Assembly: GCA_030447745.1 (NCBI GenBank)
Contig: JAUJOH010000005.1
Span: 84,337 to 148,336, forward strand
Direction of reading: 5' to 3'
Length of the DNA: 64,000 nucleotides
Source: Chloroflexota bacterium
GTDB taxonomy: Bacteria > Chloroflexota > Limnocylindria > Limnocylindrales > CSP1-4
Shown here: piece by piece, positions 17,783 through 44,850 of the stretch
How the letters are laid out: the number at the start of each line of letters is the position of its first letter
Numbering within the stretch: the first letter of the stretch is position 1
The notes under the pieces: generated by a model
The model's input: only the letters and a program-made list of their open reading frames with translations
The model's database searches: none
What the model was told of the DNA's origin: nothing
Position numbers and translations under genes: made by a program

Positions 17783-21004
<3,222 letters not shown>

Positions 21005-21060
21005 TGAGGTGTTCCAGCCGGACGGGCGCGCCGGCGCCGTCCCGATTGCGAGGTCAGAAC

Positions 21061-22614
<1,554 letters not shown>

Positions 22615-22664
22615 CGGCCGAGCCTGCCTGAGGGCGCCGGCACGACGCGGACCGCGCGGCCCGA

Positions 22665-23639
22665 TCAACTGGCGGCGGGCGCCGCCTTCTCCCGGATCGG
22701 CCGTGGCGGCGACTCGACGATGAGCGCGAGCCCCGGTCCCATGGCCTCGAGCCACGGTCGCACCAGCGAATGCGCCCGATCGAGCCACGCGTCGGCGCCG
22801 GCGAGGTCAGTCGCCAGGATGATCCGAAGGCCGCCGTCGGCCTCCTCGACGAGCTGATCGGACCCGCGCAGTCCGGTCCTGAGGGCGGCCGCCGTCGCCC
22901 GAACGACCCGCGGCGGTGCGCTGGCACCCAGCGACAGGACCAGCTCGGTCACGCGGACATCGCCGACCGCGGCCTGCGCGCCCCGCTGCCGTCTTCGAGG
23001 CGGCCGGGACCCGCCGCCGCCGGGCTCGCCGAGGAAGGTTGCGATGGCCCGTCCCGTCCGTTCCGGATCGTCGTCCTGTCGCGGCATCGTGAAGCGACGC
23101 GGGCGGCCGTCGGAGCCGGCTCGGTCGAGAGGCGCTGGTCGGTCCCCGCCGGGCGGCTCGTGCGCGGTCGCGTCGAGGACTTCCCCGAGCGGCACCCGAG
23201 GCACCGCCGCAGATGGCGAGGAACGAGGTGCTTCGGGGGTCCGGCGGGTGGTCAGCGGAGCGGACCCGGCGGCGTCTTGCAGCGGCCGATCTGCATCGTC
23301 CACGTCCGGCGTGCGCACCGGCTCGCCGGGTGCCGCAACCGCGCCGGAGTCCGTGGGTGCGGACAACCCGGCTGCCTCCGCGAACCGCCGCTGGGCCGCC
23401 AGCACACGCTCGTCGGGAACGATCGGCGGCCGCTTGCGCCGTGGCGCTGGCTCACGCGGTCCACCGGCGCCTCGCCCCGACGCCGCGGATGCTCGGACAT
23501 GTCCGATCGCCACGACGAGCCCCAGCAGGCTCAGGTTCAGGAGCACGCCGGACACCAGCAGCAGAAGGAGACTGTCGCGTGGCACTCGAACGTCCGTACG
23601 GGAGGAGGGCGAGGCGGTTCCCGCCCGCGTCGGCTGCAT
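22665..23639 (-). CDS. Hypothetical membrane-anchored protein; the C-terminal domain faintly resembles a degenerate GGDEF fold
   Basis: 324 aa from the ATG at 23639. TM segment LLLLLVSGVLLNLSLLGLVVAI, long Pro/Arg-rich linker, C-terminal LRGSDQLVEEADGGLRIILATDLAGADAWLDRA. The function call is tentative. Confidence 0.5.
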   Translation of the reverse strand: MQPTRAGTASPSSRTDVRVPRDSLLLLLVSGVLLNLSLLGLVVAIGHVRASAASGRGAGGPREPAPRRKRPPIVPDERVLAAQRRFAEAAGLSAPTDSGAVAAPGEPVRTPDVDDADRPLQDAAGSAPLTTRRTPEAPRSSPSAAVPRVPLGEVLDATAHEPPGGDRPAPLDRAGSDGRPRRFTMPRQDDDPERTGRAIATFLGEPGGGGSRPPRRRQRGAQAAVGDVRVTELVLSLGASAPPRVVRATAAALRTGLRGSDQLVEEADGGLRIILATDLAGADAWLDRAHSLVRPWLEAMGPGLALIVESPPRPIREKAAPAAS

Positions 23640-23664
23640 TGTACGGGGACCGTCGCGGGCGGAC

Positions 23665-24175
23665 GGCGGCGCGCTCGCGGTCAGCTGATCCGCGCGAAGT
23701 CCGCCGTTCCGCGCTTGACGAAACGGCCGTGGCCCTTCCGCCCGGTGAACTCGCCGTCCCTCACGATCACGGAGCCGCGCGACAGCACGACCTGTGACGC
23801 GCCTCGGACCTCGCGACCCTCGTAGCACGAGTAGTCGACGTCCATGTGGTGCGTCGTCGCGGAGATGGTGCGCGTTCGGTTTGGGTCGTAGATGACGAGG
23901 TCCGCGTCCGCGCCGACCGCGACCACACCCTTGCGCGGGTACATCCCGAACAGCTTCGCCGGCGCCGTCGAGACGACCTCCACCCACCGCTCGCGACTCA
24001 TCCGGCCGGCGACGACGCCGCCGTCGTGGAGGAGGTCGACCCGATCCTCGACGCCCGGCAGGCCGTTAGGGACCTTGCGGAAGTCGCCACGCCCGAGCTC
24101 CTTCTGACCCTCGAAGTCGAACGGGCAGTGATCCGTCGAGACGACCTGCAGGTCGTCCTTGATGAGGCCCCGCCA
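23665..24175. repeat. Copy 1 of a ~0.5 kb direct duplication (dihydropyrimidinase 3' end plus 16 nt downstream)
   Basis: Both copies start ggcggcgcgctcgcggtcagct and end gaggccccgcca. Copy 1 keeps a clean reading frame. Confidence 0.9.
23681..24175 (-). pseudogene. Dihydropyrimidinase/D-hydantoinase, 3' fragment (last ~165 codons), copy 1
   Basis: WRGLIKDDLQVVSTDHCPFDFEGQKELGRGDFRKVPNGLPGVEDRVDLL...STAPAKLFGMYPRKG..VGADADLVIYDP..ISATTHHMDVDYSCYEG. No N-terminal two-thirds. Confidence 0.8.
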
Positions 24176-24316
24176 CCCTCAGCATCTTCCTGCTGAGCCT
24201 GCTCGTCGGCCTCGGGCGGGACGCCGCGGCCGGCGGGGATGCGGCGCGCCGTCGCGGGATCATCGACGCGTTCCGTCGCGGGCGGGACAGGTGCGCTCAG
24301 CGGGTTCCTGGTCTGG

Positions 24317-24850
24317 GGCGGCGCGCTCGCGGTCAGCTCGGATCCGCGCGAAGTCCGCGGTTCCGCGCTTGACGAAACGGCCGTGGCCCTTCCGCCCGGT
24401 GAACTCGCCGTCCCTGGCGCGCGCACGGGAGATCACGGAGCCGCGCGACAGCACGACCTGGGACGCGCCTCGGACCTCGCGACCCTCGTAGCACGAGTAG
24501 TCGACGTCCATGTGGTGCGTCGTCGCGGAGATGGTGCGCGTTCGGTTCGCGGTCGTAGATGACGAGGTCCGCGTCCGCGCCGACCGCGACCACACCCTTG
24601 CGCGGGTACATCCCGAACAGCTTCGCCGGCGCGGTCGAGATCACATCCACCCACCGTCCCCCGCGACTCATCCGGCCGGCGACGACGCCGCCGTCGTGGA
24701 GGAGGTCGACCCGATCCTCGACGCCCGGCAGGCCGTTCGGGACCTTGCGGAAGTCGCCGCGCCCGAGCTCCTTCGATGAGCACCCTCGAAGTCGAACGGG
24801 CAGTGATCCGTCGAGACGACCTGCAGGTCGTCCTTGAGGAGGCCCCGCCA
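24317..24850. repeat. Copy 2 of the duplication, carrying several small indels relative to copy 1
   Basis: Same end sequences as copy 1. Differences include cagctCgGatcc, a 12-nt insertion (ggcgcgcgcacg), ttcgcggtc versus tttgggtc, and cttcgatgagcaccctc versus cttctgaccctc. A 141-bp unique spacer (24176-24316) separates the copies. Confidence 0.9.
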
Positions 24851-24880
24851 GGCCGCCGCGAACTGCCGGAGGTCGACGCC
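24333..24880 (-). pseudogene. Dihydropyrimidinase 3' fragment, copy 2, multiply frameshifted; extends ~10 codons further 5' than copy 1
   Basis: The same protein blocks are spread over three frames (VDLRQFAAAWRGLLKDDLQVVSTDHCPF / KELGRGDFRKVPNGLPGVEDRV / ISATTHHMDVDYSCYEG). The stop codon is lost through indels. Confidence 0.7.
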
Positions 24881-24917
24881 GTCGAGCCGGCCGTGGCACG
24901 TGCCGGAGGTGTGGAAC

Positions 24918-25388
24918 GCGCTCGAGCGCAATCGCGGCCGGGCCTACTGCGTTGCCTTCACCGCGATGGTCGGGATGAACCTGTTCCGCCAGGCGGTCGA
25001 CCTGACGAAGTCCGGCCAGACCGCCGCGAGCACGAAGTTCGAGGTGCCGAAGAAGGGCACGCGCCTCGGCGTCGGGTTCTGGGGGGCGGGTCGCGGCTAC
25101 CTGTCCCACCACCTCGTGCTGGACGACGGCGTCGTCACGAACTACCAGATCATCACGCCGTCGACGATCAACGCGTCCCCCCGCGATCCGTGGGGAAGGC
25201 CCGGCAAGTACGAGGAGGCGGTGATGAACACGCCGATCCTCGAGTCGAGCGGGGACGGCAAGTTCGTGGGCATCGACGTCCTCCGGGCGATCCGCTCGTT
25301 CGATCCGTGCATGCCGTGCACGACCCACATTCACAGCGACCAGGGCGTCGTGACCCGAGAGGTCAACACCTGCGCCTGCGGCGTCTGA
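24918..25388 (+). pseudogene. [NiFe]-hydrogenase large subunit, C-terminal ~155 codons only
   Basis: ALERNRGRAYCVAF...GVGFWGAGRGYLSHHLV..NYQIITPSTINASPRD...LRAIRSFDPCMPCTTH plus a 19-aa tail. No start, no N-terminal metal-binding motif and no small-subunit gene upstream. Confidence 0.8.
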
Positions 25389-25391
25389 CAG

Positions 25392-25922
25392 GTGATCCTG
25401 CTGGCGGGTGTTGGCTACTCAGATCTGCGGGACCTCTCGTTCGGGCCGCGTCTCGTCGACCGCATGCGCCGGGAGACGTGGCCGCCGGGCGTCGAGGTCC
25501 AGGACCTGAGCTACGGTCCGCTCGCCGTCGTCCAGTGGCTGCAGGACGAGCCGGGCCGGTTCAGCCGCGTGATCCTGGCCGGCGCGGTCGAGCGCGGGCG
25601 GACCCCGGGCGCCCTCGCCCCCTACGCCTGGGTCCCGCGCGAGCTGACGCCCGACGCCGTCCAGGAGCGCGTGGCCGAGGCGGTCACCGGGGTGATCGGG
25701 CTCGAGAACCTGCTGATCATCGGGCAGTGGTTCGGTGTCCTGCCGGCGGACACGTGGGTCATCGAGCTCGAGCCGGTCGAGACCGACTGGGGATCGGATC
25801 CCAGCGCGACCGGTGCCGCCCGCATGGACGAAGCGATGGCATGGATTCGCGAGACGCTCCACACCGACGCGTCCGGCGGACGGAACGGCCGCGGCGCGCA
25901 TCCCGTCGAAGCCGGCGGATGA
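25392..25922 (+). CDS. Divergent paralogue of the hydrogenase maturation endopeptidase; probable loss of metal ligands
   Basis: 176 aa, starting 4 nt after the large-subunit stop. Begins ILLAGVGYSDLRDLSFG, where the canonical form is GVGNxLxxDDGxG. In my alignment VILAGAV stands where the canonical protein has LIILDAA. Confidence 0.6.
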   Translation: MILLAGVGYSDLRDLSFGPRLVDRMRRETWPPGVEVQDLSYGPLAVVQWLQDEPGRFSRVILAGAVERGRTPGALAPYAWVPRELTPDAVQERVAEAVTGVIGLENLLIIGQWFGVLPADTWVIELEPVETDWGSDPSATGAARMDEAMAWIRETLHTDASGGRNGRGAHPVEAGG

Positions 25923-26359
25923 CGGTCGACGCCATCAGCGACCGCGCGGCGGCCGGGCCCGGCCGGTCGTCCCCGGCCGCCCTCCGTCCGGACTCTGACA
26001 CCGCCCTGGCCGCGCTTCGTTGCCGTGACGACATCCTGCAGGCCCTGTTCTGGCTCCGCGGCGAGGGGTTCGGCGACGATGCGGACGAGGCCGCGATCGC
26101 ACGCCTGGTGATCGTCGATTCGGCCGTCGTTCGCGCGCAGCTCGAGGCGCTCGTGGCCGAGGGCCTGCTCGAATCGGCGGGTTCGCGCTACCGGCTGACG
26201 GCCCGCGGCGCTCACGAGGGCGGTCGTCGCTTCGCCGACGACTTCGCTGACCTCCAGCTGACAGCCCACGGCGAGTGCCCGCCCGACTGCCCGCACTGCG
26301 AGGCGGTCGAGCGCGACGGCTGCTCGCATTGCCTGACCGGCCGAATCGACGAGCCGTGA
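25919..26359 (+). CDS. Hydrogenase-cluster protein: winged-helix-like region plus C-terminal Cys/His cluster
   Basis: 146 aa with an ATGA overlap upstream. Contains ILQALFWLRGEGFG, LVAEGLLESAGSRYRLTARG and HGECPPDCPHCEAVERDGCSHC. Paralogue at 29390-29857. Confidence 0.6.
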   Translation: MTVDAISDRAAAGPGRSSPAALRPDSDTALAALRCRDDILQALFWLRGEGFGDDADEAAIARLVIVDSAVVRAQLEALVAEGLLESAGSRYRLTARGAHEGGRRFADDFADLQLTAHGECPPDCPHCEAVERDGCSHCLTGRIDEP

Positions 26360-27396
26360 CCGCCGTCGGCCAGCCGCTTCCGGTCCTCGGCGCGGTACGC
26401 ACGCGAGCGCCGGCAGCCGCGCCACGGCCCGGGGAGTCGGCGCCGGCGGAGACGCATCCTGACCCCCATGGCCACGCTGACGCCGGAATGTCGCCGGGCG
26501 CCGGAGCACCGGGCGACGCCGTCATCGCGGAGTACGAGGCGCTCCAGCGGGCCGTGGCCGCGGGGCTCGAGCGGCTGGAGGGGCTGTCCACGCACCACGG
26601 GCGGGACGAGGCCTTCGCGCTGCTCGACGCCGTCGACGGCCTGCATCGCCACGCCCTCCAACGCCTCCTCGGCGTGCTCGACACCGTGGGTGGAGCCGGC
26701 CTCATCGGTCGCGTCGCGGGCGACCCGATCGTGCGCTCCCTGCTCGACCTGTACGACCTGCTGCCGGCCGACCCGCGGGCCGAGGTCGACGCCGCGCTTC
26801 GCGAGGCCCATCCGTACCTCGAGTCGCACGGGGGGCACCTCGAGGTCGTCGGGATCGACGACGGCCGAGTGAGGGTCCATCTGTCGGGCTCGTGCGAAAC
26901 CTGCCCCGGGTCGTCGGTCACGCTGCGGCGGGTCGTGGAGCGCGCCCTGCAGGAGCAGGTCCCCTGGTTCCGGGAGCTGCTCGTGGAGGATCCGCCGCCG
27001 CCCTTCACTCCCGAGACGCCGGCCGCCGAGGCCGATGCAGCGGCGCCCGGTCGCCGGCCGCTGCGACGCCCGCGCTGGGTCTCGGTTGCGCGTCTCGGGG
27101 AGCTGGCGCCCGAGGCGGTAAGGGTGGTCCGACCGGAGGGCGTGGCGCTCGTCCTCGTCGCCCACGGCGGCGAGATCCTCGCGTACGCCGACGGGTGTCC
27201 CCCCGCGACCCCGCTCACGCTGGCGCTCGCGACCCTCGACGGATCCGACCTGGTGTGCCCGTGGCACGGCTGTCGCTACGACGTGCGGACGGGCCGTCGC
27301 TCTACCGGTGACGGCCGCCTGGCGGTCTACCCTGTCGCCGTGCGCGGCGACGACGTGCTGATCGCTCTGGGCACCGAGGAGGTCCCGGTCGGATGA
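26356..27396 (+). CDS. NifU-like domain fused to a Rieske-type domain (resembles the HucE/HhyE-type putative Fe-S proteins of actinobacterial uptake hydrogenases)
   Basis: GTGA overlap at 26356 (alternative ATG at 26488). NifU C-terminal block HGGHLEVVGIDDGRVRVHLSGSCETCPGS. Rieske second box CPWHGCRYDVRTG. The first box is atypical. Confidence 0.7.
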   Translation: MTAVGQPLPVLGAVRTRAPAAAPRPGESAPAETHPDPHGHADAGMSPGAGAPGDAVIAEYEALQRAVAAGLERLEGLSTHHGRDEAFALLDAVDGLHRHALQRLLGVLDTVGGAGLIGRVAGDPIVRSLLDLYDLLPADPRAEVDAALREAHPYLESHGGHLEVVGIDDGRVRVHLSGSCETCPGSSVTLRRVVERALQEQVPWFRELLVEDPPPPFTPETPAAEADAAAPGRRPLRRPRWVSVARLGELAPEAVRVVRPEGVALVLVAHGGEILAYADGCPPATPLTLALATLDGSDLVCPWHGCRYDVRTGRRSTGDGRLAVYPVAVRGDDVLIALGTEEVPVG

Positions 27397-27917
27397 CGGT
27401 CCGAATTCTCGTCGCCGGCGTCGGGAACGACCTGCTGCGCGACGACGGGTTCGGCATCGTGGCGCTCCGTCGGCTGGCGGAGTGCGGCGTGCCGCCGGGC
27501 GTCGACCTCGTCGAATCGGGGATCGCCGGGATCGCCCTCGTCCAGGAGCTGGTCGCAGGCTACGACGCGCTGATCATCCTCGACGCGGCGGAGCTCGGAG
27601 CGGCGCCCGGAACCCGCCGCCTCTTGGCCGTCGAGGTCCCGGACCCGGCCGCGCTGGCCGAGGAAGATCGACGGGCGCTGCTGGCGGACATGCACCTCGC
27701 GGTCCCGTCGCTGGCGCTCATCCTCGCTTGCGCGCTCGACGCCCTGCCGCCCCGCGTGTTCATCCTCGGCTGTCAGCCGGGCGACACCGGGCTCGGCCTC
27801 GGCCTCACGCCACCGGTCGCCACCGCGGCGCAGGCAGCGGTCGAGCAGGTGCTCGACCTGGTCGGGTCGCTCGCGGCGTCGGGCCGGCCGGCCACGGCCG
27901 CCGAGGCGGTGGCCTGA
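27393..27917 (+). CDS. Hydrogenase maturation endopeptidase (HupD/HybD/HoxM family)
   Basis: 174 aa with an ATGA overlap. Contains VAGVGNDLLRDDGFG, LIILDAA and DMHLAVP. Confidence 0.85.
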   Translation: MTVRILVAGVGNDLLRDDGFGIVALRRLAECGVPPGVDLVESGIAGIALVQELVAGYDALIILDAAELGAAPGTRRLLAVEVPDPAALAEEDRRALLADMHLAVPSLALILACALDALPPRVFILGCQPGDTGLGLGLTPPVATAAQAAVEQVLDLVGSLAASGRPATAAEAVA

Positions 27918-27918
27918 C

Positions 27919-28152
27919 ATGTGCCGCGCGGAACCGCGCCGCGTCCTCGCGGTCGACGGCGGGCGCCTCCAGGTGCTGTTCGACGGCTCGCCGACGTGGG
28001 TCGGAGACGGCGGAATGGACGGGCTCGCGGAGGGTGACTACGTCGTGGTCTACGCCGGCCATGCGGTGGAGCGGATGGACGGCGACGAGGCCGAGGACAT
28101 CATCCGCTTCAACGACGAGCTCGAGGCAATGCTGGAGTCGGCCAGCAGGTGA
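27919..28152 (+). CDS. hypC: HypC/HupF-family hydrogenase assembly chaperone
   Basis: 77 aa starting MC.., with GDYVVVYAGHAV typical of HypC. Confidence 0.75.
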   Translation: MCRAEPRRVLAVDGGRLQVLFDGSPTWVGDGGMDGLAEGDYVVVYAGHAVERMDGDEAEDIIRFNDELEAMLESASR

Positions 28153-28898
28153 CGCTCGTTGCGCCGACCGGCCGGGCCTTCGCCGGTTCCCTTCGCTTCA
28201 TCCGCTACGGGTTCATGCCCAACCGCCTCCGGTACTGCGGCCCGGACGACAACCGGACGCTGTTCGAGTACGCCGTCGCGCGAACCGTGGATCCCGGCGT
28301 GATCCCGCTGCTCCGGCAGTTCAGCGGCGCGATGCCCTATCTCACGCTGATCGCCCGCGCCAACGGCATCGCCGACCCCTTCGACGAGCGCGTCGTCGAG
28401 GCGTACTGGATCGGGAACGACCTGCTCGACGCGGTCGAGGTCCGCCAGCTTTACGACCACCTGGCTGAGCGATTCGGGGGTCAGCTTCGTGGCCGCGCTC
28501 GCGACTGGGTCCTGAGCAAGGCACCGGCGGGCGCACTCCCGCACCACAGCTTCCACGTCCTGGACGTGTACCGCGTCGTCGGCGAGCGTGGTGACTCGCT
28601 CGAGACGATGGACAGCTGCCGGGTCAGTTGGGGCCGGGTCGCGGCGGTCGAGGGTCCCACGCTTCGCGTCGAGCGCCAGCCCGTCGCGCTCGTCGCGGGC
28701 AAGCTGTCGCTGATGCCGGCGGTCGACGTCCAGGTTGCCCGGCAGGTCGACGGGCGTGGTTTCGCGGACGCCGCCGATGTCGGGGACTGGGTGTCGATCC
28801 ACTGGGGATGGGCGTGCGAGCGGTTGCGGGACGACCAGCGCGCCGCCCTTGCGCGGTACACGGCGCACCACCTCGCGATCGCCAACCAGACGCTTTGA
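28149..28898 (+). CDS. Conserved hydrogenase-cluster protein of unknown function; the C-terminal ~75 aa look HypC-like
   Basis: 249 aa with a GTGA overlap on hypC. C-terminal region CRVSWGRVAAVEGPTLRVE...VGDWVSIHWGWA. I recall this family being labelled DUF6390 but cannot verify that here. Confidence 0.6.
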   Translation: MTLVAPTGRAFAGSLRFIRYGFMPNRLRYCGPDDNRTLFEYAVARTVDPGVIPLLRQFSGAMPYLTLIARANGIADPFDERVVEAYWIGNDLLDAVEVRQLYDHLAERFGGQLRGRARDWVLSKAPAGALPHHSFHVLDVYRVVGERGDSLETMDSCRVSWGRVAAVEGPTLRVERQPVALVAGKLSLMPAVDVQVARQVDGRGFADAADVGDWVSIHWGWACERLRDDQRAALARYTAHHLAIANQTL

Positions 28899-28909: not shown

Positions 28910-29389
28910 TCAGGCGTCGAGCGGGTTGGCCTCCGACGGGAACCCGTCCTCCGGCAGGAGCACGTCACGCGCGGGGCGACGCCGCGGTTCCGACGGTCGC
29001 CCGGCGGACGCCGTCGCGTCGATCGCGGATCCTTCCTGCAGCACCTCGTAGCGCTCGAGGTAGGCCGACACGACGTTGCGCGTCTCGCTCAGCCCGGCCG
29101 CCGCTTCGTGGAGCGACTGCCGGCCGCCGGGCGTCAGCCGGTAGACGCGACGAGCCGGTCCGGCTCGCGAGGTCTCCCAGTGCGAGGCGACAAGTCGCTC
29201 GCGCTCCATCTGACGAAGGCCCGGTAGAGCCCGCCGGGATCGCTGACGAACAATCCGAGACGCGACAGCCGCTCGAGGAGGTCGTAGCCGTGACTCGGCT
29301 GCTCCCCGATCAGGAGCAGCAGGCAGAACCTCGGGAACTGCCGGGGCAGGGCGGCCGCGCTCTCGATTCCGCGACCGGCGTCCGATCGC
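28910..29389 (-). pseudogene. PadR-family transcriptional regulator with one apparent frameshift (~29220); start unresolved
   Basis: FCLLLLIGEQPSHGYDLLERLSRLGLFVSDPGGLYRA, then in another frame MERERLVASHWETSRAGPARRVYRLTPGG. One extra C in gggcc|tt restores ..YRALRQMERE... There is no canonical start between 29349 and 29389. The nearest in-frame ATG is at 29481, inside the upstream gene. Confidence 0.65.
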
Positions 29390-29857
29390 TCACGACAGCG
29401 TCGCTCGCGAGCGCCCGGCGAGGCACGCCTCCGCCTCGCGCCGGGAGGCGGCGCACCAGCAGGAGACGCCGCACGCACCATGAGCAGGTCTCGTCCAGTC
29501 CTCGAACTCCTCCGCGAAGATCCGGCCACCCTCGGCGCGACCCCGAATGGAGAGCCGGTAGGCAAACGCGGAACGCTCGAGATAGCCGTCGTCCACCAGC
29601 TCCTCGAGATGCGCGGCCGCAACCGCCGGAGCGACGCCCATGAACCGGACGAGCGTCGAGATGCCGACGAGCTCGCCGAAGCCCTCGCCCTCGATCCAGA
29701 AGGCGAGCTGAAGGATCTCGTCGCGCCAGAACAGGCGGCGCAGCTCCTCGCTGCGCGGCTCATCCACGTCGCTCACGGCAGGACCTCGAGCAGCAGCAGG
29801 GCCGGGTTGGTCGCCGGATCCCGCCCCGAGCGTACCGGGAGCCGCTGGCGCGGACAA
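29390..29857 (-). CDS. Paralogue of the 25919-26359 protein (winged-helix-like region plus Cys cluster)
   Basis: 155 aa. Contains ILQLAFWIEGEGFG, LVDDGYLERSAFAYRLSIRG and HGACGVSCWC. Divergent from the iron-type ABC operon, directly upstream of PadR. Confidence 0.6.
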   Translation of the reverse strand: MSAPAAPGTLGAGSGDQPGPAAARGPAVSDVDEPRSEELRRLFWRDEILQLAFWIEGEGFGELVGISTLVRFMGVAPAVAAAHLEELVDDGYLERSAFAYRLSIRGRAEGGRIFAEEFEDWTRPAHGACGVSCWCAASRREAEACLAGRSRATLS

Positions 29858-29870
29858 GGCGTCGGCACGG

Positions 29871-30938
29871 GTGCGACCGACGAGGGGACTGCGGCGCCCC
29901 GGTCCGGCCGCCCGAGGTCGAGCAGGGCCGGCGCGGACCGGTCCACGAGGCGCGTTGCCCGGTGGCTGGCCGCCGCCCTGGTCGTTGCGGTCGCGCTCGG
30001 CGCCTGCTCCGGCGCGGGTGTGCCGGGGGTTCGATCGGCTGCTCCCGCGACCACCATTCGCCTCTATACGACCGTCCAGGCGCCGACGGTGGATGCCGTC
30101 GTGGCGGCGCTGGCTCGGTCGAACCCGGAGATCGGCGTCGACGTCTTCCGGGCGCCGACCGGTGAGGTCGCGGCCCGCATCGCGGCCGAGGAGCGCGAGG
30201 GCGGCATCCGCGCCGACGTCCTGTGGCTGAGCGATCCGCTCTCGATGGAGTCGTACGCCTCCCGGGACCTGCTGCGCGCCTGGTCCCCATCCGGCGCCGC
30301 CGCCATCGACCCAGCATACGTCGCGGACACGTACTGGGGCACGCGGATCCTCAACATGGTCATCGTGACCGGAAGCGACGTCGAACCGCGACCGTCGTCG
30401 TGGGAGGACCTGACGAACGAGCGGTACCGGGACATGGTCGCCATCCCAGACCCGGCGTTCGCCGGATCCGCGTTCGGCGCGCTCGGCTACTTCGCCCTGG
30501 AGCCGGACTACGGGTTCGACTTCTTTCGGCGCCTGAAGGCCAACGGCGCCGTCCAGGTCAAGGCGCCGGACGAGGTGACGACGGGTGTCGCCGAGGGGCG
30601 GTTCAAGGCGGGCATGACGCTCGACTTCTCGGCCCGCCAGGCGGCCGGCAAGGGCTCGCCCGTGGAGCTCGTCTGGCCGGAGTCGGGGTCGATCGCGATC
30701 TTCAGCCCGATCGCCGTCGTCGCCGCCACCCAGCGCGCAGGGGCGGCCGAAGCCTTCGTCGAGCTGGTCCTGTCGCCCGAGGGCCAGGCCGCGATCACCG
30801 CCACGGGCTGGCAGCCGGTCCTCGAGGGCGCCGGCGGCCCTGGCACCCGAGGGTCGGCAGGTCCGCCCCGACTGGTCCGCGGCCGTCGGCCGGCAGGAGG
30901 AACTGCTTGCGGACTACCGCTCGATCTTCGGTCCCTGA
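29871..30938 (+). pseudogene. ABC transporter substrate-binding lipoprotein (iron(III)/FbpA-like PBP2 fold), frameshifted
   Basis: Lipobox AVALGAC, then IRLYTT...ADVLWLSDP...VAIPDPAFAGSA...AGMTLDF. The last 30 codons (PEGRQVRPDWSAAVGRQEELLADYRSIFGP) are in another frame (break ~30845). The only canonical start (GTG at 29871) is in a third frame, which implies another break near 29945. Confidence 0.65.
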
Positions 30939-30947
30939 GCAGGGCCC

Positions 30948-32570
30948 GTGACGGATCGGCGCGCGACCGCCGTCCTCGTCGCGGCGACAGCCGCCGTGGC
31001 CGCAGCGCTGATCGGGCTCCCGCTCGCCCGCCTGGCGCTCGTGGCCACGGACGGCGGACCGGTGGCCATCGTCGGCGCCCTCGGCGGACCCGCGGCCGTG
31101 ACGGCCGTCGTGAACACGCTCTGGACGTCCGGCCTGGTATCCGCGATCGCCGTCCTGGCGGGGACGGGCGCGGCGATCTTCACCGAGCGCGCCGCGGGGT
31201 CGCGACGGCATGCCCTCCGTGCCGCGGTCCTCGCCCCCCTCCTCCTGCCGCCGTTCGTGCTCGCCCAGGCGTGGGCGCGCGCGTGGGGGCCGCGCGGTCT
31301 GTCGGATCAGCTGCTCGGCGTCGACCTTCCTGGCTCTACGGTCCGGGCGGCGTCGTCGTCGTGCTCGCAGTCGCGGCCACGCCGCTCACCTATCTCGTGA
31401 TCGCAGCGGCGCTCGCCAGCCGGGTGGAGCCGGAGCTTGAGCTGGCCGCCCGGGCGAGCGGCGCCGGGCGCTGGACCGTGCTCGCCACGGTCACCCTGCC
31501 GCTCCTGCGGCGCGCGGTCCTCGCCGCGACGATTGTCGCCTTCGTGTTCGCCGCCAACGCGTTCGGCGTTCCCGCGGTGCTCGGGACGCCCGTCGGATCC
31601 TCACGATCACGACCCGTCTCTACCAGGACCTCGCCTTCTCGGCGGAGCCCTCGCCTTCGCTCGCGCGGCCGTCCTGGCGGCGGCGCTCGTGCTCCTCGCT
31701 TTGGTCGTCGTCGCCGCCGCGGATGCGCTGGGACACCGGGCGGGGGCGACTCGGTCCGGGCTGCCGTCGACGGGCCGCGTCGGCGCGCGGGGCGGCGGCG
31801 TCGGGGTTGCGTTGCTCGTCGGGGTCGTGACGCTCACCACCGTCGTCCCGTTCGTCGCGCTCCTGCTCACCGCGCTGACCCGGGCCGTCGGCCTGCCCCC
31901 CGTGCCGGAGCACTGGACGCTGGCGAACTTCGCGATGGCGGTCGATGGCCCGTTCGGCGAGGCGCTCGCCCGGACCGTCGTGCTGGGGACAGTGACGGCA
32001 TCGCTGGTCCTCGTCCTGGGCGCGGTTGCTGCGGTTGCGGCGCGCTCCCGCGCCCGGGCGCTCGGCACGGCGATCACGCTGGGGTTTGCTGTCCCGGGGT
32101 CCGCGCTCGCCGTGGCCGTCCTGCTGGCGTACGGGGGTCCACTCCGCGATACCCTGGCGCTCATCCTCGTCGCGTACCTTGCGAAGTTCTGGGCGCTCGG
32201 GCACCGCCAGCTCAGCGGTTCGCTCGACCGTCTGGCACCGGACCTCGTGCGGGCTGCGCGGGCGAGCGGGGCCGGCCCGGTCGACGCGCTCGCCACCGTC
32301 GTCGCGCCGATCCTTGCGCCGTCGGTCGTGGCCGCCTGGGCGATCGTGTTCGTCTTCGCGCTCCACGAGCTGACGATGTCGAGCCTCCTGTACGGGCCCG
32401 GCACCGCCACGCTGGCCGTCGTGGTCCTGGGCGTGCAGCAGCTCGGCGACCCGACGGTCAGCGCTGCGCTCTCGGTCCTCCTGACGGCGATCGTGGTGGC
32501 CGGGACGATCCCGCTGCTGCTGGTGCGGCGCGCCGCGGTCCGGCCCGGCCCTGTGACCCCGGCGGGATGA
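30948..32570 (+). pseudogene. Two-domain ABC permease (FbpB/ThiP-like) with at least 3 frameshifts
   Basis: Permease sequence can be followed across frames: ..LSDQLLGVDL | WLYGPGGVVVVLAVAATPLTYLV..ELAARASGAG..VLGTPVG | ILTITTRLYQDLAF | ALAFARAAVL...RAARASGAGP..LHELTMSSLLYGPG. Breaks at ~31328, ~31595 and ~31640. Confidence 0.75.
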
Positions 32571-33676
32571 CCGCCGGCGGCGAGCCCGACCCGGGGCGCG
32601 CGCCCGCGGTCGCGGTCGACGGGCTGACGGTGCGCTACGACGGCGCGCCGGTCGTCGATGGCGTCAGCCTGACGGTCGCTCACGGCCAGGTCGTTGCGCT
32701 GCTCGGGCCGTCGGGATCGGGCAAGACGACGCTGCTGTCGGCGATTGCCGGCTTCCTCGCGGTGGACGCGGGCGAGATCCGGATCGGCGGCGAACTCGTC
32801 GCGGGGGCGGGGGTGCACCGGCCGCCGGAGCGTCGGGCGTGCGGCGTCGTGTTCCAGAGCTATGCGCTCTGGCCGCATCTGCGCGTCGCCGAGATCGTCG
32901 CCTACCCGTTACGCCGCGCGGGCATCGGTCGCGACCAGGCCGCCGCCCGAGCGATGGAGCTGCTGGGGCGGCTCGGGATCGCGCACCTCGCCGCACGGCG
33001 GCCGACCGAGCTATCCGGCGGCGAGCAGCAGCGCGTCGCCCTCGGCCGGGCGCTCGCCCGGGACCCGCGTCTCTACCTGTTCGACGAGCCGACGGCGCAC
33101 CTCGACGCGCCGCTCCGTGCCCGGCTCCAGGCGGAGCTCGCCGAGCACCGCCGGAGGAGCGGTGCCGCGGCCCTCTACGCGACCCACGACACCGCCGAGG
33201 CGCTTGCGCTGGCCGACCGGGTCGCGCTCCTCCGCGCCGGCCGGATCGTGCAGGTCGGCACGCCGCAGGCCGTGTACGAACGCCCCGTCGATCGCCGGGC
33301 GGCGGAGCTGACTGGACCCGCGGCGGTCGTCGATCTCGCCGTCGTCGCCCCGGCCACCGACCGCTCGATCCTCGCGCTGGGCGGAGTCCGGGTCGACGTT
33401 GCGCTCGGAGGCGAACGGCCGCCGGCCGCCGGGCCAGTCCAGGTGCTCGTGCGGCCGGACTGGGTGTCGCTCGGCGGTCCGCTGCGCGGCCAGGTCGAGC
33501 TCGTCGCGTTTCGCGGTCCGCATACCGACGTCCACCTCGCGACCGCCGGGGGGACCATCGGAATCCGGATCCCCGGTCCACCGACCGTCGCGCCGGGCGC
33601 GTGGGTCGGCTGGTCGCTCGAGCGGGCGTGGCTCCTCCCCGCGGCGGGGCCGCCCAGCGCCGGCTCCGCCCGGTGA
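32567..33676 (+). CDS. ABC transporter ATP-binding protein with a C-terminal TOBE-like domain
   Basis: 369 aa. Walker A GPSGSGKTT, signature LSGGEQQRV, Walker B LYLFDEP. ATGA overlap with the permease. Confidence 0.9.
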   Translation: MTAGGEPDPGRAPAVAVDGLTVRYDGAPVVDGVSLTVAHGQVVALLGPSGSGKTTLLSAIAGFLAVDAGEIRIGGELVAGAGVHRPPERRACGVVFQSYALWPHLRVAEIVAYPLRRAGIGRDQAAARAMELLGRLGIAHLAARRPTELSGGEQQRVALGRALARDPRLYLFDEPTAHLDAPLRARLQAELAEHRRRSGAAALYATHDTAEALALADRVALLRAGRIVQVGTPQAVYERPVDRRAAELTGPAAVVDLAVVAPATDRSILALGGVRVDVALGGERPPAAGPVQVLVRPDWVSLGGPLRGQVELVAFRGPHTDVHLATAGGTIGIRIPGPPTVAPGAWVGWSLERAWLLPAAGPPSAGSAR

Positions 33677-33691
33677 TACGGGGTCTGTCCC

Positions 33692-34699
33692 CTACCGCCC
33701 GGCGGCCACGTCCGCGAGCGCCGGGATGATCTCCCGACCGTAGGCCTCGAGGACCTGCTCCTCGTCGCCGTTCATCAGGTAGATGTTGAACTGGTCGACC
33801 CCCGCGTCGGCGAGCTCGCGGAGCTTCGCCACGTGGTCCTCCACGGATCCGAGCACGCAGAACCGGTCGGTCACCTCGTCGCCGACGAACTCGGCATTCG
33901 AGGAGCCGACCTCGGCGTGATGCAGGTAGTCGTAGCCGGTGCGATCGCGGATGTAGCCCGTCAGCGACTCGGGCAGCTGGTCCCGCGGGTACCTGTTCAC
34001 CAGATCGACGACGTGGTTGCTGACCAGGGCCGGGAACCAGCGCGTGCGCTCGCGGCACGGCTCGAGGTCGCCGACGTGCGCCGGCGCCGCGGCCTGGACC
34101 TTGACCGTCCCCGCCGGCCGCCCGGCGGAGGCCTCGGCGTCGCGGACTTGGCCCACGAACCACCGGATCAGGTCCGGGTCGGCCAGCTGGAGGATCACCC
34201 CGTCGGCCACCCGCCCGGTCATCGCGAGCGCCATCGGTCCGTAGCCCGCCACCCAGACCGGCAGCGTCCAGCTCCCCGTCCACGGCAGGCTCAGGTCGGC
34301 GCCATCGTACGCCACCGTCCGGCCCTCGACGAGGCCCTTGATCGCGATGATCGCCTCCTCGAGCGTGGTGAGCGTCGTGGGCGGCTTGCCCAGCACCCGC
34401 CGCGCCGAGTCCCCGCGCCCGATGCCGAGGTCCATGCGGCCGCCGGACAGCTCGTCAAGCACGGCCAGGAGCGAAGCGGTGACGGACGGTTCCCTCGTGG
34501 CGGGGTTCGTCACGCAGGTGCCGAGGCGCATCCGCTCGGTCGCCTGCGCCATCAGCGTCAGCAGCGGGTACGGATCGCGCCAGAGCACGTGGGAGTCGAA
34601 CACCCAGCCGTAGTCGAACCCCGCCGCCTCGGCCCGGCGCGTCAGGTCGAGCGTCCGCTCGACCGTGTGGTCCGGCTTCAGCGTGAACCCGAACTGCAT
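33692..34699 (-). CDS. Luciferase-like monooxygenase (LLM) family oxidoreductase, F420/flavin-dependent type
   Basis: 335 aa from the ATG at 34699. LLM fold blocks (FGFTL, FDYGWVFDSH, LGTCVTNP, GRMDLGIGRGDS, VWVAGYGP). Confidence 0.8.
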   Translation of the reverse strand: MQFGFTLKPDHTVERTLDLTRRAEAAGFDYGWVFDSHVLWRDPYPLLTLMAQATERMRLGTCVTNPATREPSVTASLLAVLDELSGGRMDLGIGRGDSARRVLGKPPTTLTTLEEAIIAIKGLVEGRTVAYDGADLSLPWTGSWTLPVWVAGYGPMALAMTGRVADGVILQLADPDLIRWFVGQVRDAEASAGRPAGTVKVQAAAPAHVGDLEPCRERTRWFPALVSNHVVDLVNRYPRDQLPESLTGYIRDRTGYDYLHHAEVGSSNAEFVGDEVTDRFCVLGSVEDHVAKLRELADAGVDQFNIYLMNGDEEQVLEAYGREIIPALADVAAGR

Positions 34700-34813
34700 C
34701 CCGCGCGACCCCTCCCAGAGCGGACGAAGCAGAGAGGGTACACCGCCTCGCGGCCGTCGGGCCGCGCGGCGGCCAGGAAGGCGGCCGCGGTTCTCGGCGC
34801 TCGTCACGCGCGG

Positions 34814-35290
34814 TCAAACCGAATCCGATGCAGCGGCGTCAACGGGTGCCGGCCCCGGCGCGCCCGGCCGACTGATCGCTACAGCGGCCTGATCCCCGTC
34901 GTCCTGGAGCGATGCCGCGAGGACGATCTCCGCGGCGGTGCAGCCGACGAGGAGCTTGATCTCCACGTCTCGCTTCACGCCGTCGACACAACACAGCACG
35001 GCAGTGACGACCGCATCGGGCAGCGTTCCGCGCCACACATCGATGCCCGCGCCGTCGCCTGATGTCGTCCCGTCGAGGTACCCGTAGTCGAGCGGATATG
35101 TGAAGTCCGGATAGCGCGGGTGCGCGCTGCCTCGCGGTCGGTCGACGACGATCGCGTGCCTGCGAACGAGGTCGTCCAGCGTCTGCCAGAAGCGCGCGTC
35201 CTGCCTCCGACGTCCCCGCCCTGCGATGGCCGCGCTGTGCCGACGCGGCCCAGGAACGTCGCCGCGGCGCGGCACCGCAGTGCGCCGCAT
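34814..35290 (-). CDS. Small protein with an inorganic-pyrophosphatase-like motif
   Basis: 158 aa from the ATG at 35290. YPLDYGYLDGTTSGDGAGIDVW resembles the PPase block YPxNYGFIPxTxxxDGDPxDV. Function uncertain. Confidence 0.45.
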   Translation of the reverse strand: MRRTAVPRRGDVPGPRRHSAAIAGRGRRRQDARFWQTLDDLVRRHAIVVDRPRGSAHPRYPDFTYPLDYGYLDGTTSGDGAGIDVWRGTLPDAVVTAVLCCVDGVKRDVEIKLLVGCTAAEIVLAASLQDDGDQAAVAISRPGAPGPAPVDAAASDSV

Positions 35291-35322
35291 CGGCCCCTGC
35301 TCCGGGCCTGCTCGGGCTGTGC

Positions 35323-36174
35323 TCAGGGCCTGACGAGATCGTCGTACGCGTCCGGGCGCCGGTCCCGGTAGAACTGCCACGTCTGGCGGACCTCCGTCAC
35401 CTTGTCGAGGTCCATGTCCCGCACGATCAGCTCCTCGTCGTAGGCGCTGCCCAGGTCACCGACGAACTGGCCGCGCGGGTCGACGAAGTACGACTGCCCG
35501 TAGAAGTCGTCGTCGCCCAGCTCCTTCTCGATCCCGACCCGGTTGATCGTGCCGACGAAGTACCCGTTCGCCACCGCATGGCTGACCTGCTCGACCCGCC
35601 ACAGGTATTCCGACAGGCCGCGTGACGTGGCGCTCGGGATGAACACCATCTCCGCGCCGTTGAGCCCGAGCGCTCGGGCGCCCTCCGGGAAGTGCCGGTC
35701 GTAGCAGATGTACACGCCGACCTTGCCGACCGCGGTATCGAACACGGGATAGCCCAGGTTCCCGGGACGGAAGTAGAACTTCTCCCAGAAGCCCTTGACC
35801 TGCGGGATGTGGGTCTTGCGGTACTTGCCGAGGTACTGACCGTCGGCGTCGATCACGGCGGCCGTGTTGTAGTAGAGCCCCGACGCCCGGCCGTCCTCCT
35901 CGTACATCGGCACGACGAGCACCATCCCGGTCTGCTTCGCCAGGTCCTGCATCCGCCTCGTGGTCGGTCCGTCCGGGATCAGCTCCGTGTAGCTGTAGTA
36001 CTTCGGGTCCTGGACCTGGCAGAAGTAGGGGCCGTAGAACAGCTCCTGGAAGAGCATCACCTGCGCACCCTGCTTCGCCGCCTCGTGCGCATACCGCTCG
36101 TGCTTCTGGATCATCGTTTCCTTGTCGCCGGTCCAGGTGGCCTGGAGGAGCGCGCCTCGGACGATGCGCGGCAT
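35323..36174 (-). CDS. Nitrilase-superfamily C-N hydrolase, beta-ureidopropionase / N-carbamoyl-amino-acid amidohydrolase type
   Basis: 283 aa. Glu-Lys-Cys triad context: MLFQELF, YRKTHIP, VYICYDRHFPE. Confidence 0.85.
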   Translation of the reverse strand: MPRIVRGALLQATWTGDKETMIQKHERYAHEAAKQGAQVMLFQELFYGPYFCQVQDPKYYSYTELIPDGPTTRRMQDLAKQTGMVLVVPMYEEDGRASGLYYNTAAVIDADGQYLGKYRKTHIPQVKGFWEKFYFRPGNLGYPVFDTAVGKVGVYICYDRHFPEGARALGLNGAEMVFIPSATSRGLSEYLWRVEQVSHAVANGYFVGTINRVGIEKELGDDDFYGQSYFVDPRGQFVGDLGSAYDEELIVRDMDLDKVTEVRQTWQFYRDRRPDAYDDLVRP

Positions 36175-36366
36175 GTTGCGGCCCTCCTCGAGTGCGTCGG
36201 GTGCCTGCGGAGAGCGAGAGGGTACACCGAGGCTTGTCCGGTTCGCGGACCCGGCATAGCCCGGGCGGACGTCCACGTCCGTCCGGCCCGCATTGCAAGG
36301 GGACTGGCAGCCACGCCGCCGGTCCGTGCGTTCCCGGCGCCGACGCCGAGAATCGAGACTCCGGGC

Positions 36367-37119
36367 GTGTCCACCCCGAGCCTTCCGCCTGCCGTTGCGC
36401 AGGCGAGTGACGCAGCCGCGCGCGTCGCGGACCAGAGCACCGTCGCGGAGCCCGTCGCGCAGGAGCGCGGACGCGTCGCGAACACCGTGATCCTCGCCGG
36501 CCTGGTGGGCTTCGGCGGGATCTTCCTGCTCGTCAAAGCCGGGCGGAGCGCGGCCATCGACCTGGCACTGATGGTCAGGCTCCAGCGGCTCTCGAACCCG
36601 GTGTTCGACCGGCTGATGGCGCTCGCGTCGTGGCCCGGCTTCCCGCCGCAGAGCCGGATCTTTCCCCCGCTGCTCATCGCCGGGATGTGGTTCGCGCGAC
36701 TCCGGACCGAGGCCTTCTTCCAGCTTCTCGGCTGGTGCACCGGCGGCATCTCGACCGTCCTGAAGGGGGCCATGAGGCGGCCTCGGCCGGCGGGCGTCGA
36801 TCTCCGCATCGTGACCGCGCCACTCGGCGGGTCGAGCTTTCCCAGCGGCCACGTCATCACCTACGTCGGGACCTACGGGTACCTGGCCTACCTGGCGCAC
36901 ACGAAGCTGCGGCGGCGCGCCGGACGGCGCCCGATCGTTGCCGGGCTCGTCGCGCTCCTGGCACTGGTCGGCCCGAGCCGGATCTACCAGGGTCACCACT
37001 GGCCGAGCGACGTCACGGCTTCGTACCTCCTCGGGACCAGCTACCTCATCGGGCTCACGACCCTGTACCGCCGGGTGAAGGCGCGGCAACGGCGCCCGCC
37101 GGAGTCAGCTGTCGGATGA
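36367..37119 (+). CDS. PAP2-superfamily membrane phosphatase
   Basis: Motifs KGAMRRPRP, PSGH and SRIYQGHHWPSD. The GTG at 36367 is a chosen start and is uncertain. Confidence 0.7.
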   Translation: MSTPSLPPAVAQASDAAARVADQSTVAEPVAQERGRVANTVILAGLVGFGGIFLLVKAGRSAAIDLALMVRLQRLSNPVFDRLMALASWPGFPPQSRIFPPLLIAGMWFARLRTEAFFQLLGWCTGGISTVLKGAMRRPRPAGVDLRIVTAPLGGSSFPSGHVITYVGTYGYLAYLAHTKLRRRAGRRPIVAGLVALLALVGPSRIYQGHHWPSDVTASYLLGTSYLIGLTTLYRRVKARQRRPPESAVG

Positions 37120-38132: not shown

Positions 38133-38361
38133 CCGAAACGCGGCATGAGACGGTTACTGGTCGGCCTTCTGCCCACGGGCCGTTGCCCCGTGGCCTCGCT
38201 GTAATGGGCATGTCAGGGCCGCGGTACAAGGCCGCGTGCTGGTGTGACCGAGCAGGCACCACGATCAGGGCCTGTCCTCGTGTGCCGTGCGAGGGACGCC
38301 ACATCGCAATCGCGAACCGGCCGGGCCACGGCACCGGCGTGACACAGCCAGGAGGCGACGA

Positions 38362-39210: not shown

Positions 39211-39213
39211 TCG

Positions 39214-40619: not shown

Positions 40620-40643
40620 GCTCACGCGATCCACGAAACCGAC

Positions 40644-40672
40644 GAACGCGGCCGGGCGTCCCGGCCGCGTTC
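40644..40672 (+). terminator. Stem-loop after the stress-gene triad
   Basis: gaacgcggccggg-cgt-cccggccgcgttc, a perfect 13-bp stem, followed by tcgtgtct. Confidence 0.6.
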
Positions 40673-40801
40673 TCGTGTCTCCGCCGCGTCCGGCCGCGGG
40701 TCTGCCGCGGCGGGCGTGGCGGTGTGCTGTAATGGCGCCTCGAGGTTGGGACGACCGGGGCGGCCGCGACTCCGGTCCGTCGGCCGCGTGAGACGAGGTG
40801 G

Positions 40802-42136: not shown

Positions 42137-42139
42137 GCG

Positions 42140-43066: not shown

Positions 43067-43091
43067 TCCACTGAGAGGAGCGGACCCGCGC

Positions 43092-44806: not shown

Positions 44807-44850
44807 CCGTCGACGAGCGGAGCACCGTCCGGGATCGAGGCGCGGGCGCC

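Follow-up and report, generated by a model that had tools for sequence, protein, structure and literature searches.

Distal remnant of a putative group 1l [NiFe]-hydrogenase locus within a hydantoin/pyrimidine-utilisation cluster of a Chloroflexota bacterium

The stretch of Chloroflexota DNA analysed here (64 kb; hereafter the window) carries the distal part of a [NiFe]-hydrogenase locus, and this remnant is unable to make a hydrogenase. The explanation we prefer, to which we give about an even chance, is that a recent rearrangement left a hydrogenase-dead piece of a group 1l (Hyl) locus, of the Limnocylindria-type Chloroflexota kind, inside a hydantoin/pyrimidine-utilisation cluster (Table 1). 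The locus is an ordinary genomic scar of a known cluster type and not a new system; neither its component families nor the type of cluster is new to the literature, and no long-standing question is opened by it. If real, the structure shows an atmospheric-H2 hydrogenase cluster of soil Chloroflexota caught in the act of gain or loss. It also bears on metabolic calls made from marker genes, since matches to the C-terminal hylL fragment or to the accessory genes would wrongly score the genome as an H2 oxidiser.

Table 1. Features of the hyl block and its junctions (window positions)
Feature	Position	Strand	Basis or remark
Dihydropyrimidinase 3' fragment, copy 1	23681..24175	-	TIGR02033 positions 300-454 of 454, E 3e-65
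141-nt filler between dihydropyrimidinase copies	24176..24316		No convincing match within the window or 48 loci
Dihydropyrimidinase 3' fragment, copy 2, with 22 nt of 3' flank	24317..24850	-	93.6% identity to copy 1
Scrambled hylL 5' edge	24851..24893	+	Homologous to the 10 codons preceding WHVP in L046; insertions +2, +1, +2, +7
hylL 3' fragment	24894..25388	+	Pfam NiFeSe_Hases; alignments to L001, L002, L046; dN/dS 0.074 (vs L001)
HupD-like pseudo-protease	25392..25922	+	TIGR00072 E 2e-11, under family cutoff; alignments to 5TTX, 1CFZ, orthologues
HTH + Cys-cluster protein, conserved in hyl loci	25919..26359	+	Weak HTH Pfam matches; orthologues in nearly all related loci
HylE-type NifU-like + Rieske-like iron-sulfur protein	26356..27396	+	Pfam NifU E 2e-19, Rieske E 1e-7
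HupD/HybD-type maturation endopeptidase (HycI/HupD)	27393..27917	+	TIGR00072 E 2e-30; alignments to 1CFZ, 5TTX
HypC/HupF chaperone	27919..28152	+	PF01455 E 1e-10
DUF6390 protein with HypC-like C-terminal stretch	28149..28898	+	PF19927 E 4e-68; local HypC similarity E 1e-4
PadR-family regulator, frameshift near 29205	28910..29370	-	Pfam profile positions 41-75 only; N-terminal part in another frame
Second HTH/Cys-cluster protein	29390..29857	-	74% identical to L001 neighbour in the same position
ABC transporter of the block	29954..33676	+	Pfam; frames compared with intact L001 ORFs
Right junction, 15-nt spacer	33677..33691		ATPase stop to convergent luciferase-like gene stop; L047/L048 synteny resumes

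The truncated large subunit and its accessory genes

Only the last 164 codons of the large-subunit gene (hylL) remain. The ORF that contains them (24834-25388) matches positions 371-508 of the 508 in the Pfam NiFeSe_Hases profile (E 2e-28), and clean in-frame homology runs from a W (24894) to the motif DPCMPCTTH and a 19-aa tail; an earlier note on this DNA had recognised the truncation and this ending, with a count of ~155 codons. The fragment aligns with residues 467-630 of the intact large subunit of the related locus L002 (given as 625 aa), with 173-336 of that of L001 and with the equivalent portion of that of L046, and relative to these three the break is exact. Its alignment with related large subunits displays no unique substitutions at conserved sites. 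In the deposited record (a 186,451-nt NCBI contig), the same fragment is annotated as a 162-aa protein (P0001).

Neither HylS nor a complete HylL with its N-terminal CxxC motif was found in the 64 kb. Searches of the window by tblastn with L002 queries gave no further match to the small subunit, to the transmembrane (TM) ORFs TM1-5 or to the large-subunit N-terminus, tblastn with the ORFs of 45 related loci found no other hydrogenase part in it, and Pfam scans of a subset of ~45 further window ORFs contained no hyp genes. These results agree, among the ORFs scanned, with the earlier note's statement that the window lacks the small subunit, the large-subunit N-terminus and hypA/B/D/E/F. The missing hyp genes are probably no sign of loss: L001 and L021, the two relatives with visible downstream context, likewise have no hypABDEF after the block; because DUF6390 is followed in both by PadR and not by hyp genes, this absence is probably the normal layout of such loci.

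Directly downstream of the hylL fragment lie six intact and tightly coupled accessory genes (25392-28898). Their junctions (TGA at 25386-25388 then GTG at 25392; ATGA at 25919; GTGA at 26356; ATGA at 27393; a TGA ending at 27917 then ATG at 27919; GTGA at 28149) are exactly as first read, and the family originally proposed for each gene was upheld by profile searches and by alignments to structures and orthologues. Throughout 24894-28898 (4.0 kb) there are no frame-breaking indels and no premature stops, and the accessory genes keep their family motifs and have dN/dS values of 0.16-0.31. The HTH/Cys-cluster protein has a paralogue farther along the block, at 29390-29857.

Placement of the block and its junctions

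The remnant belongs to an 8.8-kb block (24851-~33691) inside the hydantoin/pyrimidine-utilisation cluster. Either side of the block, the window is collinear with two related loci, L047 and L048: on the left in the genes for PEPCK, MDH, methylmalonate-semialdehyde dehydrogenase and the dihydropyrimidinase 3' end, and on the right in the luciferase-like and CN-hydrolase genes. For L047 the collinearity includes the aminotransferase and ABC genes as well. In both the cluster is uninterrupted, with a full dihydropyrimidinase gene and a 418-aa gene in place of the 8.8-kb hyl block; thus, part of the event was the insertion of the block into, or its substitution at, a foreign site, and in-place decay alone does not account for it. 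A comparison with the syntenic locus had been proposed in the earlier note; the flanks prove collinear, and the absence of the block from the relatives means that more than in-place loss took place. The internal order of the block is that of L001, including the PadR, second HTH-Cys and ABC genes, and its tetranucleotide composition shows no anomaly and falls inside the window's own range. At the right junction, which is clean, neither of the two convergent genes is truncated. Of the block's ABC genes, the solute-binding protein gene has a frameshift near 30843 and the permease gene is shifted by -1 at three places (near 31334, 31603 and 31645), whereas the gene for the ATPase (32567-33676) is intact. 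The clustering of frameshifts in the PadR and ABC genes reflects either a longer decay than the accessory genes suggest or poor local sequence quality.

The left junction is more complicated. Copy 1 of the dihydropyrimidinase fragment consists of 165 codons in frame, keeps its stop codon and is 85% identical in nucleotide sequence to the intact gene of L048 and L047. Copies 1 and 2 break off at one and the same Trp codon; compared with copy 1, copy 2 has insertions of +2, +12, +1, +3 and +5 nt, two frameshifts and a lost stop codon, and its isolated point differences (alignment read by eye) comprise five synonymous changes and one conservative change. The scrambled hylL edge that follows has a local alignment score of 28, compared with 13.8 +/- 2.5 for shuffled sequences (0 of 2000 shuffles reach 28). 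Nine small indels, all of them insertions, lie in 24317-24893, and the boundary at 24894 is sharp. The earlier note had the dihydropyrimidinase reaching ~24900 and the junction at ~24880-24918; the opposite-strand neighbour was correctly identified, but its homology ends at 24850, and 24851-24893 is scrambled hylL. The region 24176-24893 is odd in itself, in that copy 2 differs mostly synonymously, like an allele from another strain, a pattern that a strain-mixed or poorly polished assembly could yield. Neither junction sequence was found among JGI metagenome contigs, an uninformative result.

In the history that we prefer, a hyl island would first have integrated cleanly beside the luciferase-like gene, and a later deletion or rearrangement would have taken out hylS, the five TM genes and hylL up to about codon 460, together with the promoter region upstream of hylS, the 5' two-thirds of the dihydropyrimidinase gene and the neighbouring 418-aa gene. 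For this order of the two steps, the clean right junction is the one indication. Like the filler and the nine insertions, the doubling of the dihydropyrimidinase 3' end would be a by-product of the rearrangement, of repair or of a poor consensus. The accessory genes would be intact because the event is recent relative to the divergence from known relatives and, left so by a recent event, they would be idle or redundant in the present remnant. A very recent loss was among the readings first offered for this locus, and it agrees with the undamaged state of the fragment and the accessory genes.

An alternative that we judge unlikely is that the contig merges co-existing strains, or low-coverage long reads, into one consensus. 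In that case a mis-join or false duplication would have produced the left junction (24176-24893) and perhaps also the position of the block, and the true genome would have an intact hyl locus or none here. The near-duplication of the dihydropyrimidinase 3' end, with its allele-like and mostly synonymous differences, would fit such an origin, as would the limitation of insertion-only indels to the left junction followed by none for 4 kb, and the clusters of single-base frameshifts in the permease gene and copy 2, each of which sums to a length change divisible by three. The L047/L048 contigs contain many split genes, which suggests error-prone assemblies in the same lineage, and there are further broken genes elsewhere in the window. 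However, the contig rejoins the same syntenic locus after 8.8 kb, so that two coordinated mis-joins would be needed, no shared repeats coincide with the break points, most window genes are long intact ORFs, and several indels measure 5-12 nt, a size atypical of long-read sequencing error. The chimeric assembly that had been suggested is improbable in its simple form, since both flanks return to one syntenic locus; the doubt about the assembly was justified for the left junction region, which looks unreliable.

A single illegitimate-recombination event, in which ~2.2 kb (the dihydropyrimidinase 5' part and the 418-aa gene) was swapped for an 8.8-kb fragment starting in the middle of hylL, is doubtful to a like degree. 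The source would be the same genome or a close relative, and the structural genes would never have been at the site. The dihydropyrimidinase and hylL genes are both cut at one junction, no related hyl locus has a dihydropyrimidinase gene nearby, the composition of the block is indistinguishable from that of the host, copy 2 resembles a foreign allele, and group 1l genes are reported to be frequently transferred horizontally (PMC13554262). On the other hand, the right junction lies within 15 nt of two stop codons with both genes whole, which would be rare for two random break points, and neither mobile-element genes nor target duplications were found.

Retention of the accessory genes

With either structural history, the accessory set could be under selection, maturing or wiring a [NiFe]-hydrogenase whose genes lie at another place in the genome, which we consider quite unlikely. 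The 4.0 kb from 24894 to 28898 has no frameshifts, compared with ~5 in the adjacent 2.5 kb and the nine indels in the 0.58 kb to its left, and the accessory-gene dN/dS values given above are compatible with selection. In addition, both the small and the large subunit find a second match in L019, ~10 kb away from the first; a second hyl locus may thus exist in some relatives. However, because the relatives used for comparison are distant, the dN/dS values are mostly a record of the period preceding the event. The hylL fragment, which can serve no purpose, is in as good a condition as the accessory genes, and recency therefore accounts for the pattern with no need of selection. The region upstream of the operon is gone, and a promoter consensus scan for 25392-28898 found no sites (a weak result at the 72% G+C of this genome, with a consensus that may not suit this phylum). 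A second hydrogenase locus, moreover, would normally have its own HupD, HylE and HypC. That the set has been retained by selection since the loss of the structural genes, either for a hydrogenase elsewhere or for a cognate-independent role, seems to us very doubtful; if it were true, the undamaged 4 kb beside frameshifted neighbours would be the signature of selection and not of recency.

Relationship to known hydrogenase systems

By pairwise identity and the gene layout of orthologous loci, the locus is best classified as a remnant of group 1l (Hyl). The hylL fragment shares 61-93% identity with the large subunits of 27 orthologous loci from several phyla and 49% with the group 1h structure 5AA5, so that by pairwise identity it is nearer to the large subunits of these loci than to group 1h. 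The small and large subunit genes are 1.2-2.5 kb apart in every orthologous locus that could be scored (19 of 19; 27 loci in total), and in L002 and L046 the gap holds five single-TM ORFs. The gene order of these loci is small subunit, five TM ORFs, large subunit, pseudo-protease, HTH-Cys, HylE and HupD.

The published description of group 1l Hyl draws on Hymenobacter roseosalivarius and on genomes from Antarctic soil (Ortiz et al., bioRxiv 10.1101/2020.08.06.239558; PMC13554262), and five small TM ORFs between HylS and HylL are its published hallmark (bioRxiv 10.1101/2020.08.06.239558). The window's orthologous loci share with the published cluster HylS, the five TM ORFs, HylL, the Rieske-type HylE and the HupD endopeptidase. 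The window itself has the downstream HylE and HupD genes but is without HylS, HylTM1-5 and the first ~460 HylL codons, and its block stands at a foreign site; since the five TM ORFs are absent, it is a remnant and not a member locus.

Group 1h (Hhy/Hof) provides the closest solved structure to the intact orthologue, Cupriavidus necator HofG (5AA5; E 3e-159). The two have in common the oxygen-tolerant uptake type and a C-terminal DPCxxCxxH motif, which is DPCLPCGVH in 5AA5 and DPCMPCTTH in the window. The small and large subunit genes of group 1h are generally adjacent, whereas those of the window's orthologous loci are separated as described above. The earlier note had favoured a group 1h/2a-like locus, which this 1l-type spacing and the modest identity to 5AA5 contradict; for group 2a, the Huc structures 7UTD and 7UUS score far below 5AA5 with the intact orthologue. 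Its broader view of the locus as the remnant of an aerobic, probably high-affinity, uptake hydrogenase has held up.

HucE/HhyE of Mycobacterium smegmatis, encoded in a hydrogenase operon, has an N-terminal NifU-like domain with CxxC and a C-terminal iron-sulfur domain (Islam et al. 2019, PMC6883350), and HucE carries a Rieske-type motif with a CxH...CxxC signature (PMC6883350). The window's HylE is likewise a putative iron-sulfur protein with these two domains and, as first thought, a NifU-Rieske fusion of the HucE/HylE kind. Its motifs in the orthologue alignment are SGSCxxCPGS and GCPP...CPWHGC; the latter takes the place of CxH...CxxC in the window protein and all 21 orthologues, and the context is group 1l.

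The endopeptidase encoded at 27393-27917 aligns over its full length with HybD/HupD (1CFZ, 5TTX). Its acidic, Asp and His metal ligands are preserved, with Asp, Asp and His where E. coli HybD has Glu16, Asp62 and His93. Its paralogue at 25392-25922, rightly described from the start as degenerate, carries Leu and Gly there and lacks the His, so that all three Ni ligands are missing, as they are in every orthologue; judged by these residues, it should not be named a protease. The substrate gene of the window's endopeptidase within the window is the truncated hylL alone.

The large-subunit fragment and its accessory genes

The hyl block is what is left of a group 1l [NiFe]-hydrogenase (Hyl) locus and can no longer yield a hydrogenase. 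In the window (G+C content ~72%), the ORF ending at bp 25388 matches positions 371–508 of the 508 in the Pfam [NiFe]-hydrogenase large-subunit model (the last 138; E = 2e-28), and this hylL fragment (hylL') gives a gap-free alignment with the last 164 residues of intact 625-aa large subunits from related loci. The same fragment is annotated as a 162-aa protein (P0001) on a 186,451-nt contig in the deposited NCBI record, so the truncation is present in the public sequence. Every ORF of 45 related loci was used as a query, and no other hydrogenase sequence was found in the window; likewise the small subunit, five transmembrane (TM) ORFs and large-subunit N-terminus of the related locus L002 gave no further hydrogenase match there. 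The earlier note had described just this, a truncated large subunit with no other hydrogenase parts in the window, and the observation stands; its description of the six downstream genes is exact down to the start/stop overlaps, and the families it assigned to them are upheld. Exact-protein look-ups with P0001 and the window's DUF6390 protein found no second assembly carrying either. Recurrent truncation of the large subunit and dihydropyrimidinase, as many short matches on long contigs might suggest, was set aside; the 164–165-aa queries returned nothing above ~290 aa, apparently a property of the search.

The C-terminal extension of the fragment ends in TREVNTCACG, which is near-invariant in the large subunits of 27 loci spanning Chloroflexota, Actinomycetota, Acidobacteriota, Bacteroidota and Proteobacteria. 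Such conservation, two cysteines included, is unusual for a peptide that the endopeptidase should remove and that is discarded.

Judged from their sequences, the accessory genes are typical of their families rather than degenerate. None of the three HybD nickel ligands is present in the first protease-like protein or in any of its orthologues; the "degenerate paralogue" proposed for it is borne out, and the protein is a conserved pseudo-protease. The second protease keeps its Asp, Asp and His ligands. HylE (the NifU–Rieske protein) has the NifU CxxC motif and the GCPP...CPWHGC motif common to all 21 orthologues. In its C-terminal domain and the orthologues from L001–L020 (22 of 22 sequences), GCPP and CPWHGC are separated by 19 residues and do not form the canonical Rieske CxH...CxxH; throughout the group 1l HylE family another residue stands in place of the first Rieske His ligand, which suggests non-canonical cluster ligation. 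The block also contains two paralogous HTH proteins with Cys clusters (~35–45% identical), neither of which received a family assignment from profile searches; they are similarly paired in the related loci L001 and L021. A second HylE/HupD set in L004 was considered as a further orphan accessory set and rejected, as it lies on a scaffold with Ns and a duplicated HypF.

Coordinates of features in and around the hyl block
Feature	Position (bp)	Observation
Malate dehydrogenase (MDH) gene	20355–20910	Last ~10 codons and stop missing; fused directly to C-terminal half of an Lgt-like gene; ~430 nt missing relative to L048 (MDH end, spacer, Lgt N-terminus)
Hydantoin/pyrimidine-utilisation cluster (flanks)	20878–24175, 33695–46148	Methylmalonate-semialdehyde dehydrogenase, dihydropyrimidinase, luciferase-like monooxygenase, CN-hydrolase, class III aminotransferase, NMT1-type ABC transporter
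Dihydropyrimidinase 3' end, copy 1	23681–24175	
Dihydropyrimidinase 3' end, copy 2	24317–24850	93.6% identical to copy 1
hyl block	24851–~33691	
Interrupted hylL codons	24851–24893	Four small insertions
Clean hylL fragment	24894–25388	
C-terminal extension	25330–25385	
Six accessory genes	25392–28898	
First HTH-Cys gene	25919–26359	Within hyl operon
HylE C-terminal domain	27100–27260	
PadR frameshift	~29205	Relative to intact L001 gene
Second HTH-Cys gene	29390–29857	Beside PadR, opposite strand
Solute-binding protein frameshift	~30843	Relative to intact L001 gene
Permease frameshifts	~31334, ~31603, ~31645	Three successive -1 shifts, net in frame, relative to intact L001 gene
Tandem repeat	62709–63021	Intergenic (histidine kinase gene/aquaporin gene); 73-nt unit, 4.3 copies, 71% matches
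MIP/aquaporin gene	63108–63998 (-)	Split by in-frame stop at 63429–63431; adjacent ORFs match Pfam MIP positions 6–112 and 136–222

The insertion site and its junctions

Two long contigs, L047 and L048, were reached through dihydropyrimidinase homologues (the named matches are Candidatus Limnocylindrales), and each is collinear with the window to the left and to the right of the block. They share the PEPCK, MDH and methylmalonate-semialdehyde dehydrogenase genes and the dihydropyrimidinase 3' end on the left, and the luciferase-like monooxygenase and CN-hydrolase genes on the right, with the aminotransferase and ABC genes in addition in L047. In both, a full-length dihydropyrimidinase gene is followed by a gene for a 418-aa protein and then the luciferase-like gene, and hyl genes are absent from the corresponding site; the site of the remnant is thus occupied by other genes in relatives. 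In the window the hyl block replaces the 5' two-thirds of the dihydropyrimidinase gene and the 418-aa gene. It consists of hylL', the six accessory genes, PadR, the second HTH-Cys gene and an iron-type ABC transporter, in an internal order identical to that of the hyl locus L001. No functional dihydropyrimidinase remains in the window for the hydantoin/pyrimidine cluster.

At the right junction, two complete convergent genes are separated by a 15-nt spacer. Neither a target-site duplication nor an inverted repeat was found at the block ends, and tetranucleotide composition does not distinguish the block from the rest of the window.

At the left junction the dihydropyrimidinase 3' end is doubled; both copies break at the identical Trp codon, and a 141-nt filler with no convincing homologue separates them (a weak collinear match, score 37, to the left flank of copy 1 falls within a genome-wide background with scores up to 55). 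Relative to copy 1, copy 2 has lost its stop codon and has five insertions, two of them frame-breaking; by our reading of the alignment its isolated point differences are five synonymous and one conservative, a pattern that would fit two alleles better than a decaying duplication. Immediately before clean hylL, 43 nt show homology to the codons just ahead of this point in the hylL gene of L046, another related locus (none of 2000 shuffles reaches the score). Nine insertion-type indels thus lie in 24317–24893, versus none over the following 4 kb.

Age and origin of the remnant

The truncation is recent relative to divergence from known relatives, as the earlier note's option of a recent loss would have it. 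There are no frame-breaking indels or premature stops in 24894–28898 relative to relatives, and at sites conserved among 27 orthologues the hylL fragment carries no substitution of its own; in comparison with L001, the accessory genes have dN/dS values of 0.16–0.31 and the fragment has 0.074. That the right junction is clean suggests a complete hyl island as the former occupant. Such an island would have integrated at this site, and a later deletion or rearrangement would have removed hylS through the 5' part of hylL, as well as the dihydropyrimidinase 5' part and the gene next to it.

The main structural rival to integration followed by deletion is the arrival of a partial fragment in a single step. 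An assembly problem, for example strain mixing or a low-coverage consensus, is also in play: the left junction is scarred and duplicated, and frameshifts are clustered. Measured against their intact L001 counterparts, the genes for PadR, the solute-binding protein and the permease contain about five frameshifts of one base each; this cluster (29200–31650) reflects genuine pseudogenes or else insufficient polishing of the sequence there. Patterns spanning the left and right junctions had no match in JGI metagenome contigs. Broken genes make up about one in eight in the window (aquaporin, MDH/Lgt, dihydropyrimidinase, PadR, solute-binding protein and permease; Lgt is prolipoprotein diacylglyceryl transferase). 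The accessory set may serve another hydrogenase in trans, but this need not be invoked: the large-subunit fragment, though useless, shows no more damage than the accessory genes do, which a recent event is enough to explain. A simple chimeric join is unlikely, since on the far side of the 8.8-kb block the contig resumes the syntenic locus it had left.

Comparison with known hydrogenase loci

A genome scan and exact-protein look-up gave a gene order common to the related loci: large subunit, protease-like protein, HTH-Cys protein, NifU–Rieske protein and endopeptidase, followed in the closest Chloroflexota loci by HypC and DUF6390. L002 and L046 have five single-TM ORFs between the small- and large-subunit genes, and the gap between these genes is 1.2–2.5 kb in all 19 scorable loci. 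TM ORFs between the subunit genes, with a Rieske-type HylE and HupD, are described as the hallmark of group 1l (Ortiz et al., bioRxiv 10.1101/2020.08.06.239558). The best solved structure for an intact orthologue is 5AA5, of group 1h (Cupriavidus necator HofG); its identity to the window fragment is only 49%, compared with 61–93% between the fragment and the large subunits of the 1l-type loci, so the group 1h/2a label of the earlier note fails and should be replaced by group 1l. Pfam scans of ~45 further ORFs, a subset of those in the window, identified Suf, sigma/anti-sigma, PEPCK, tRNA synthetase and similar genes and no hyp genes, in agreement with that note; however, hypABDEF do not flank the block in L001 and L021 either (the two relatives whose contigs extend past DUF6390), so their absence is probably the normal layout and not a sign of loss. 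On the whole the original observation is sound and its interpretation partly supported. The locus is an ordinary rearrangement remnant, of some value as a warning for marker-gene calls of H2 oxidation; every component belongs to a described family, and the cluster type is a published one.
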